From a virus: a stretch of DNA of 25,903 nt. The notes below the pieces were generated by a model, which saw nothing but the letters and a program-made list of their open reading frames with translations, was not told the origin of the DNA and ran no database searches. Position 1 is the first letter of the stretch, and every line of letters starts with the position of its first letter. Position numbers and translations under genes: made by a program. Of this stretch, positions 10,686 through 11,300 are shown piece by piece. The stretch lies in the UHGV virus genome UHGV-0320751. One strand, 5' to 3'.

Positions 10686-10777
10686 TGCTTCCAGGTAGAG
10701 AGGGGCTGGAAGCAGGAGAAAAATGAAAGAGCCAGCGGTTATATTTTTGTCATGGCTGACGAGGAATGATGGAAGAA

Positions 10778-10826
10778 GGCGTTGTATGCCACACAACGCC
10801 TCACTGTTCATTTCTTCTTTTTCTCT
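10778..10826. terminator. candidate bidirectional terminator between convergent genes
   Basis: Perfect 8-bp inverted repeat GGCGTTGT/ACAACGCC (10778-10785 and 10793-10800) with a 7-nt loop, T-rich on the + side (10801-10826) and pyrimidine-rich on the - side. Confidence 0.4.
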
Positions 10827-10987
10827 GGTGGAACCCGATGAATAAGAGTTGCACTGGTTTCCGATGAGATGGCGATATACTCGGGCAAAGTATGCTGGCA
10901 GTTTTCCAACTGGTCAAAAATACCTGCTCTCGTCTGTTGCAATGCCTGCAGCATGCGGCGGCAATGCGCCTTGCTTTTACTAACCAT
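10808..10987 (-). CDS. hypothetical 59-aa protein with a lysine-rich C-terminus
   Basis: Minus-strand ATG at 10987 preceded by GAGGAAGGA. Translation MVSKSKAHCRRMLQALQQTRAGIFDQLENC...PPEKKKK. The longer track ORF (start 11161) has no Shine-Dalgarno and overlaps the next ORF. Confidence 0.35.
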   Translation of the reverse strand: MVSKSKAHCRRMLQALQQTRAGIFDQLENCQHTLPEYIAISSETSATLIHRVPPEKKKK

Positions 10988-11048
10988 CTTTCCTTCCTCT
11001 ATCAGTCGCTGCGTGAACTCATCATGGAATACCAGGTAAATGCGGATG

Positions 11049-11300
11049 TTATCGGTTTTGGCTACGCAGCATAGTACAAAACGGACAGGTGCATCCCGGG
11101 ACGGGGGAGGCGTCACATGTCCCTGTGATGGTTGTTCCGGGTAATGTACTGTGTGGGGCATAAAAATGTCCGATAATTTTACTTTCTACCGCAGTTAGTT
11201 GATTCGTTGGTCCTGGTAGCACATTGGGCGAGGATTTAAATGCCAGGCAACTGAAGGATGATGTCGCAAGGGAGATAGCGAGAATATTTCTGATTTTCAT
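11049..11300 (-). CDS. hypothetical 84-aa secreted Cys-rich protein
   Basis: Minus-strand ATG at 11300 with AGAGG upstream. N-terminal signal peptide MKIRNILAISLATSSFSCLA; C-terminal GTCDASPVPGCTCPFC. Rare codons (AGA, CTA, CGA) suggest foreign origin or weak expression. Confidence 0.4.
   Translation of the reverse strand: MKIRNILAISLATSSFSCLAFKSSPNVLPGPTNQLTAVESKIIGHFYAPHSTLPGTTITGTCDASPVPGCTCPFCTMLRSQNR

Follow-up and report, generated by a model that had tools for sequence, protein, structure and literature searches.

The stretch of DNA considered here spans positions 10,686 to 11,300 of the virus genome UHGV-0320751, the whole analysed length of which (25,903 nucleotides) is called the window below, and its principal element is a short open reading frame (ORF) on the minus strand, ORF83 (11049..11300), which encodes 83 amino acids (aa). 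Over positions 10200-11700, the window matches the right end of Escherichia phage 21 (OL657228) at 99.9-100% identity, and the same right-end block is present at 99.9-100% identity in prophages of CFT073, Nissle 1917, ABU 83972, S88 and many other E. coli; the window represents the right-hand end of a prophage of the phage 21 type. Its genes follow one another in the order S21/R21/Rz/Rz1, bor/iss (minus strand), the gene of a TonB C-terminal-domain (TonB_C) lipoprotein (plus strand), the target stretch, cosQ, the cohesive end and the terminase genes. Within the target stretch, ORF83 and a second minus-strand frame of 59 aa, ORF59 (10808..10987), lie in tandem and both converge on the TonB_C gene, while the region upstream of ORF83 is bounded by cosQ (11419-11425, from the annotation of OL657228) and by the right cohesive (cos) end of phage 21 (11448, where that record ends). 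An Rfam scan of 9500-11800 at E<=1 returned three sub-threshold chance matches only and no known RNA.

On comparative grounds, ORF83 is a genuine protein-coding gene that current annotation misses. Full-length homologues with 25-98% identity occur in Escherichia, Salmonella, Citrobacter, Klebsiella, Enterobacter, Serratia and Buttiauxella. A search of 5.8 billion proteins yielded 22 relatives at 55-98% identity, nearly all of them 82-84 aa long (Salmonella, Citrobacter, Klebsiella, E. coli), and a profile search of 1.84 billion representatives matched 30 clusters, mostly of 79-104 aa and from Enterobacter, Klebsiella, Salmonella and Serratia, with E-values down to 1e-44 within the family; Buttiauxella relatives were also found, and a narrower family alignment used as the query for related loci gave five species loci. 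Against 14 homologous loci, the ratio of non-synonymous to synonymous substitution rates (dN/dS) is 0.10-0.17 where dS is measurable (dS saturated or >1.4), and the differences at codon positions 1, 2 and 3 number 375, 260 and 737. In seven separate contexts, the DNA homology runs from 8-16 nt 5' of the ATG, where the Shine-Dalgarno (SD) sequence lies, to the stop codon. Finally, all 79 near-identical copies (73 IMG/VR contigs and 6 others) are intact, their 11 alleles differing by 9 synonymous and 7 non-synonymous changes and by no insertion or deletion (indel). The original prediction had allowed that the frame might turn out to be unconserved and interrupted by stops; homologues in seven genera and 79 undisrupted copies show the reverse.

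The frame translates as had been described, although its length is 83 aa plus the stop, that is 84 codons and not 84 aa. The AGAGG reported as its SD sequence is found at 11310..11314 on the minus strand (read as 11314-11310), 9 nt before the ATG, and is followed by the initiation context ATCATCA(A/G)ATG, which is common to the Salmonella, Citrobacter, Klebsiella and other E. coli copies (ATCATCAR-ATG). An alternative start that would give 106 aa (ATG at 11369) was rejected because both the homologues and the DNA homology begin at MKIRN.

No family had been recognised for ORF83, and this holds: it has no match in Pfam, PHROG or NCBIfam, a Pfam search at E<=0.1 with 25 family members returned nothing save one chance match to DUF4148, and a sequence-profile search of the PDB with the family found no match. 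Its relatives are all labelled 'hypothetical' in the databases, the 83-aa minus-strand ORF is annotated in none of the records examined, RefSeq and phage 21 included, and a literature search by accessions, by motif and through papers on the Zur regulon found no description of the family. As far as these databases reach, the family is uncharacterised and confined to Enterobacterales.

The product is predicted to be a small exported cysteine-rich protein, as the original prediction had it. Its N-terminus (MKIRNILAISLATSSFSCLA, aa 1-20; 11241..11300, minus strand) has the form of a signal peptide with a predicted signal peptidase I cut at A20|F21. In the alignment of 25 diverse members by which we define the family, A20 and F21 are invariant, as are G69 and the four cysteines of the C-terminal cluster that had been pointed out (C62, C70, C72 and C75). 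These cysteines sit in the motif G-T-C-x-A-x-P-V-x-G-C-x-C-x-F-C-x-x-L-R (aa 60-79; 11064..11123, minus strand), and the window protein, whose sequence here is GTCDASPVPGCTCPFCTMLR, conforms to the family pattern G-x-C-x7-G-C-x-C-x2-C-x2-L-R as well as to the family length of ~79-86 aa and the A|F end of the signal peptide. A fifth cysteine, C18, lies inside the signal peptide; in distant members, alanine or another residue takes its place. C18 was rejected as a lipoprotein cysteine, since S-F-S precedes it, so that there is no lipobox, and since it is unconserved in those members; the signal peptide would thus be of the signal peptidase I type, with predicted cleavage at CLA|FK. The predicted mature protein is basic, comprises 63 aa (~6.6 kDa), and combines a conserved E-S-x-I-x-x-x-F-Y-x-x-H segment with the invariant C-terminal C-x7-C-x-C-x2-C. 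An AlphaFold2 (AF2) model of ORF83 is helical only, with a helix at 73-82 that starts at C-P-F-C; its confidence is low, and a Foldseek comparison of the model with the PDB gave no match. Two database proteins of 611 and 627 aa (P0075 and P0077), of low complexity and eukaryote-like, contain four to five repeats of P-(I/L)-P-G-C-N-C-P-K-C-T-x-L-R-N that match the C-terminal motif, a resemblance that may reflect convergence or a shared small metal or disulfide module.

In every context found, the family gene is a stand-alone unit, and it moves as a single-gene unit. Its slot in at least two kinds of lambdoid prophage lies directly inside cos, antisense to late transcription, and in E. coli YC21-F17 a relative adjoins iss/bor. 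Salmonella salamae, arizonae, diarizonae and indica share the order PliG - ORF83 homologue - Bor - omptin, in which PliG is identified by its match to 4DY3 (E 1.7e-57). On Klebsiella quasipneumoniae plasmid CP024459 (locus L007), a relative has Fur-family and CobW (COG0523) genes nearby and a recognisable cosN/cosQ remnant ~100-180 nt upstream, from which it follows that the gene arrived on the plasmid together with a lambdoid right end. Other relatives stand beside FecI/FecR and a TonB-dependent receptor (Citrobacter sp. JGM124), beside an SBP_bac_5 ABC system (Serratia), near a ZnuA-type ABC transporter, ALAD and an amidohydrolase (Enterobacter, Klebsiella), and beside icd (C. koseri, locus L018, 4001-4300), where the copy has a good Zur box; icd is the attachment site of phage 21, and the C. 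koseri copy may be the leftover of an old phage 21-like prophage. Further relatives in Klebsiella and Buttiauxella lie at loci with uninformative neighbours, and a 135-aa ORF upstream of the Buttiauxella copy is not PliG, as it is unrelated to the Salmonella PliG neighbour. In about ten contexts, no exporter, immunity or modification/maturation gene was found near a family copy. Rare codons had led to the suggestion of horizontally acquired cargo, and the suggestion stands: they make up 13% of ORF83 and 10% of the TonB_C gene, versus ~5% of the terminase genes and of ORF59, and ORF83 recurs as a single-gene unit in many contexts. The GC content of the region is unremarkable.

The Salmonella loci (L004, L019-L023, L030, L031) merit a remark of their own. 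There, a Zur box, pliG, the ORF83 homologue, bor and omptin form a compact host-defence cluster, on the flanks of which some of the loci have a SPATE autotransporter, SET-domain proteins and a NEL effector. The island resembles the remnant of a prophage right end.

These neighbours connect the family with the zinc regulator Zur. The enterobacterial Zur regulon includes znuABC, zinT, ykgM and pliG, and the Zur consensus is GAAATGTTATA-N-TATAACATTTC (PMC4219657); experiments have established E. coli pliG as a target, the site of which lies 34 nt upstream. We scanned 160 nt upstream of the family genes with this published consensus, scoring the core out of 15. All six stand-alone chromosomal copies have a Zur-box-like site, ATGTTAT-N3-ATAAC, with core scores of 14, 13, 13, 12, 11 and 11, placed at -36 to -47 in Buttiauxella noackiae (AATGTTATTATATAACAAT), C. 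koseri, Citrobacter JGM124, B. warmboldiae and Serratia, and at -107 in Enterobacter. A random 160-nt window from the same loci scores at least 11/15 with P = 0.038. Of 22 sites scoring at least 12/15 in 274 kb, 18 lie upstream of an ORF83 family gene or precede Salmonella pliG, and the latter site, which scores 14/15, stands at a distance from the start that is similar to the 34 nt of E. coli. The box has been kept in the relatives while the surrounding upstream sequence diverged past blastn detection. We infer that the stand-alone chromosomal copies are repressed by Zur, in which case the family would belong to the zinc-starvation response; as far as the literature checked goes, this predicted link is new.

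The copy in the window differs in precisely this respect. The best match to the Zur core (TGTTATAWTATAACA) within 160 nt upstream of it scores 9/15, which is background. At the homologous position it reads ATTATGTGCCGGCACAAG, with GCCGGC at the centre of the box, so that the AT-rich centre contacted by Zur has been replaced; the phage 21 copy appears to have lost its Zur box. The place of the relatives' box is taken by the 12-bp palindrome TGTGCCGGCACA (11342-11353, minus strand), next to which a putative extended -10 element (TGcTATTAT; 11353-11361, minus strand) can be read by eye. Positions 11342..11361, which hold both, are unchanged in 77 of 79 loci, the remaining two being single-locus alleles with one substitution each, and the -10-like element itself (11361-11353) is unchanged in 78 of 79 copies, with a single substitution in the other.

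Closer to cos, a Fur-box-like palindrome, GATAATTATT(C/A)TC, occupies 11398-11416 beside cosQ, agrees with the Fur consensus at 14-15 of 19 positions, and is kept next to cosQ in differing lambdoid cos regions (L015) and in the cos remnant of the Klebsiella plasmid. This Fur-like site (GATAATTATTCTC) was not taken as a regulator of ORF83: it is conserved cos-proximal sequence, present at L015 and L007 as well.

ORF59 does possess the features with which it was introduced, namely 59 aa, a strong SD (GAGGAAGGA, upstream of its ATG) and a KKKK tail, and makes up the distal portion of a 117-aa ORF with its start at 11161; its standing as a gene, however, does not survive comparison, and it is probably not one. 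Its 4 synonymous and 7 non-synonymous changes among the 79 loci are near the neutral expectation, and indels occur in 3 of 11 alleles (4 of 79 loci) versus none in the longer ORF83 and TonB_C genes. No diverged homologue was detected on either strand, tblastn and distant blastn against phages giving seven identical records only, and apparent diverged protein matches to ORF59/ORF117 and to a plus-strand 60-aa ORF were dismissed as frameshifted read-throughs of the same DNA. A reading of ORF59 as a diverged DUF3950 protein was likewise rejected, since the DUF3950 gene that other prophages have in this slot is unrelated to it. The original prediction recognised no family for it; it has no match in Pfam, and in PHROG it is matched by family 4843. 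PHROG 3744 matches the 60-aa ORF, both at E ~3e-46, and the ORFs that the two families cover overlap in part and are read from opposite strands of one piece of DNA. PHROG 4843 probably holds only near-identical copies, and because no diverged member of either family was found, membership is uninformative on coding.

It is rather improbable, in our judgement, that ORF59 is a real and very young small protein, co-transcribed with ORF83. Its SD and ATG lie on the same strand as ORF83, 61 nt after it and before a hairpin (hairpin 2, described below), its frame is intact in 75 of 79 loci, and at locus L035 that frame is stop-free whereas the antisense frame has two stops; given the strength of the SD, ORF59 may well be translated if it is transcribed. 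Yet homologues are confined to near-identical DNA, no domain match exists, the ratio of changes shows no constraint, and three independent alleles carry indels.

The ORFs that annotators have placed on the plus strand fare no better, and by the same kind of comparison both are spurious. The 60-aa ORF (10892..11074; WP_000881610.1 of PGAP, CPT_21_75 of phage 21), whose 3' end overlaps the end of ORF83 in antisense, contains a stop in 23 of 79 loci and indels in 3, has two stops at L035, and has accumulated 13 non-synonymous changes against 1 synonymous; the 40-aa ORF (10723..10845; CPT_21_74) has its start deleted in L035 and stops and an indel in variants. The annotators themselves disagree, the phage 21 record and PGAP giving plus-strand ORFs and the PhiR63_2 record the 117-aa minus-strand ORF. 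The latter was rejected too: it has no SD, it overlaps ORF83 in another frame, and the database fusions that include it are frameshift artefacts. In two database variants, P0003 and P0006, the middle segment of ORF83 is read in the frame of this 117-aa ORF and the ORF83 frame is regained before G-C-x-C-x-x-C; these paired frameshifts, through which C62 is lost, are either sequencing errors or real compensated frameshifts.

Together with the TonB_C gene, the ORF59 region forms a mosaic module (10222..11052, by blastn boundaries) between ORF83 and the bor-proximal segment. The prophages at L015-L017 have, in this slot and direction, an ORF83 of 71% identity, and they carry a DUF3950 module instead of the TonB_C module. 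Homology to them covers the DNA from cos to 11053, ORF83 included, and returns at 10221, and these boundaries mean that 10222-11052 has been swapped for the DUF3950 module. In E. coli, ORF83, the ORF59 region and the TonB_C gene are always found together, in 1221-1232 of 5426 complete genomes and with at least 99% identity in ~1200. The block is thus present in 23% of these genomes, and the listed carriers, which include CFT073, Nissle 1917, ABU 83972, S88, IHE3034, UM146, APEC O18, ATCC 25922 and ST131, are mainly of phylogroup B2 or of extraintestinal pathogenic E. coli (ExPEC) types, judging by the strain lists.

The TonB_C gene itself (10359..10685, plus strand; Pfam TonB_C, E 7e-13) is intact in 10 of 10 alleles, with 10 synonymous and 5 non-synonymous changes. 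Its product has a lipobox, LAVGC, and is a lipoprotein that carries only the TonB-box-binding domain; it might compete with TonB at outer-membrane receptors. The label of its PHROG family 1267, 'Rz-like spanin', looks like a misassignment. Both hairpins of the original prediction, given as perfect and 8 bp long at 10687-10713 and 10778-10800, are real and slightly longer. Hairpin 1 (10686..10714), directly 3' of the TonB_C stop, has a 9-bp perfect stem (-16.7 and -12.8 kcal/mol); hairpin 2 (10777..10801) pairs over 9-12 bp and on the minus strand has a 12-bp stem followed by UUCUUCCAUCAUU (-18.1 kcal/mol, z -3.4). With folding energies of -12.8 to -18.1 kcal/mol and z ~ -3, they are equalled by 1-3 of 200 shuffles. 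Neither satisfies the U-tract rule of the scan for intrinsic terminators, hairpin 1 being without a U tract. Of the 79 loci, 78 share an identical hairpin 2; hairpin 1 varies, with an unpaired A>C at 10711 in ~21 of 79 loci, and in L035 shows one compensatory pair and two broken pairs. Hairpin 2 may be the terminator of the ORF83 transcript.

How, then, is ORF83 to be understood? The explanation we favour, to which we would give an even chance, is that it encodes a periplasmic protein of a zinc-starvation or host-stress response that was captured as a prophage moron, and that ORF59 is not a gene. Chromosomal members of the family would be held under Zur repression and induced in zinc starvation, which in a host is also a signal of nutritional immunity. 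The phage copy would have kept its -10-like element and lost Zur control, so that the prophage would probably express it, like bor, whether zinc is scarce or not. The mature protein would act in the periplasm, where its four cysteines, with C-P-F-C at the start of the predicted helix, might bind zinc or another soft metal, or might form two disulfides that hold a small binding module, and in this way it would help the envelope of the lysogen to cope with a shortage of zinc that the host brings about. The stretch that contains ORF59 and the plus-strand ORFs would belong to the TonB_C module as a 3' untranslated or spacer part, closed by hairpin 2, which may terminate the minus-strand transcript of ORF83. 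The zinc link draws on the neighbours as well as on the boxes, that is on the ZnuA-type transporter with ALAD and amidohydrolase, on the Fur-family and CobW genes, and on FecI/FecR with the TonB-dependent receptor.

As a moron, ORF83 resembles bor/iss and lom in being a small single-gene unit that has translation signals of its own and that lies, antisense to late transcription, in the interval from the lysis cassette to cos, in encoding an exported envelope protein and in recurring beside bor/iss; unlike Bor and Lom, to which it is unrelated in sequence, it is not a lipoprotein, and its family is mainly chromosomal with predicted Zur operators. For metal handling, the obvious comparison is with MerP and other HMA-type metal binders, whose GMTCxxC motif lies at a loop-helix junction. 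ORF83 is likewise small and Sec-exported, with G-C-T-C-P-F-C before a predicted helix, whereas its motif is C-terminal, its cysteines are four, and no ferredoxin-like fold is predicted: the HMA profile (PF00403) matches none of 25 members, and the beta-alpha-beta-beta-alpha-beta fold is absent from the low-confidence helical model. A more specific version of our explanation, namely that the family is an unrecognised Cys4 protein of the Zur regulon (~6.6 kDa, periplasmic) that binds zinc, passes it on or protects the envelope in some other way when the host withholds zinc, and that prophages of ExPEC-type E. coli captured it, freed it from Zur and made it constitutive in about a quarter of sequenced E. 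coli alongside Iss/Bor, is tentative, and we would sooner bet against it than on it in all its parts.

Several observations weigh against the zinc-starvation reading. Cysteines in the oxidising periplasm usually form disulfides and not zinc sites, and Zur-regulated PliG shows that control by Zur need not mean metal handling. The Zur boxes of the chromosomal relatives are predictions, and the common descent of their promoters means that these loci do not count as separate trials; the Klebsiella lineage L027 offers no better than an 11/15 match, far upstream, and prophage and plasmid copies are at background level. No promoter was called by the promoter scan for the phage gene, the -10 being a by-eye reading, and the signal-peptide cleavage site is a reading of the alignment. 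Finally, the pLDDT of the AF2 model rose from 46.6 with 13 sequences to no more than 61.6 with 25, and neither the structure search nor the sequence searches turned up a relative of known function.

Among the other explanations, we take most seriously, while considering it unlikely, the idea that ORF83 is a periplasmic shield against a host antimicrobial protein, stabilised by disulfides and induced by zinc starvation without handling metal, in the manner of PliG, Ivy and MliC. With PliG, the family shares a Zur-box-like site over the promoter, a small, predicted periplasmic product and, in Salmonella, a place directly downstream of pliG, and pliG offers the precedent of a Zur-regulated periplasmic inhibitor. 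The Salmonella copy lies between pliG and bor-omptin on an island with a SPATE autotransporter and a NEL effector, the copies of E. coli and of the window lie beside iss/bor, and four periplasmic cysteines favour disulfides made by DsbA. Against this, ORF83 has no similarity to any inhibitor family, nor homology to PliG, ZinT or ZnuA, from which it also differs in that its Zur control is predicted only and the window copy has no box; moreover, its other neighbours are zinc and metal genes. A metal-handling role and a PliG-like role in host defence both fit the sequence comparisons. Considerably less probable is that the phage copy is a silent passenger, unexpressed since it lost its regulated promoter. 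The loss of the Zur box, the silence of the promoter scan, and the 9 synonymous to 7 non-synonymous changes in E. coli, which indicate moderate constraint only, could all be accommodated by it; it leaves unexplained that none of 79 copies is disrupted while neighbouring non-coding ORFs have stops and indels, that the SD and initiation context are conserved, and that the upstream region is nearly invariant.

We give slightly less credence still to a role in the service of the phage, in which ORF83 would, for instance, alter TonB-dependent receptors together with the TonB_C lipoprotein and so bring about superinfection exclusion or colicin resistance. The two genes are inseparable in E. coli, both specify exported envelope proteins, and one relative stands beside FecIR and a TonB-dependent receptor; most family members, however, are found outside prophages and without a TonB_C neighbour, and the TonB_C module is a separate mosaic insertion. 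Least probable of all, and very doubtful, is that ORF83 is one of the kinds named in the original prediction (toxin, bacteriocin-like peptide or signalling peptide), which would then be secreted and matured in the way of the heat-stable enterotoxins. The precursors of STa and STb consist of a signal peptide, a variable middle and a Cys-rich C-terminal end in ~70-85 aa, and ORF83 has this layout, with a conserved Cys-rich C-terminus of ~20 aa, and this total length; judging by the strain lists, it is also common in ExPEC-type strains. It departs from them in its four cysteines, spaced C-x7-C-x-C-x2-C, in its linkage to Zur boxes and in its presence in non-pathogens, with stand-alone chromosomal copies in soil- and plant-associated Serratia and Buttiauxella. 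No profile of heat-stable enterotoxins, EAST1 or bacteriocins, nor any other Pfam family apart from the chance DUF4148 match, is matched by the 25 members, and a Sec signal by itself delivers a protein no further than the periplasm. Class II microcins and bacteriocins have double-glycine leaders, in contrast to the Sec signal with its A-x-A cut site in ORF83, and none of the ~10 contexts contains their exporter or immunity genes, or a maturation gene. Bufferins have a Sec signal peptide, conserved cysteines and a possible link to metals, and ORF83 is like them and other Cys-rich precursors of ribosomally synthesised and post-translationally modified peptides in these respects; no family member matches DUF2282, and no MNIO (DUF692) or partner gene occurs among the ORF83 neighbours with precomputed Pfam calls, nor any MNIO gene among the neighbours checked at L032 and L034. 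What the surroundings of the family point to instead are Zur, zinc and host defence.

Taken together, these comparisons establish ORF83 as a conserved, mobile and unannotated gene for a small protein that is predicted to be exported and has four conserved cysteines, and we infer for it a periplasmic role in zinc starvation or host stress. The original prediction was right that the protein is exported, Cys-rich, mobile and without a described family, while the kinds of molecule that it proposed, and ORF59 as a gene, found no support. Phage 21 is a classical lambdoid phage, and 1232 of 5426 complete E. coli genomes carry this block. Its annotation names ORFs that we judge not to be genes and passes over one on which purifying selection acts in seven genera, and PHROGs contain families built on both strands of one non-coding stretch. 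The omitted gene encodes a predicted exported protein and recurs beside the serum-resistance gene iss/bor, and beside pliG and omptin. We therefore offer the hypothesis that it may represent a new envelope factor of the response to zinc starvation and nutritional immunity, the regulation of which would have been rewired by prophages.

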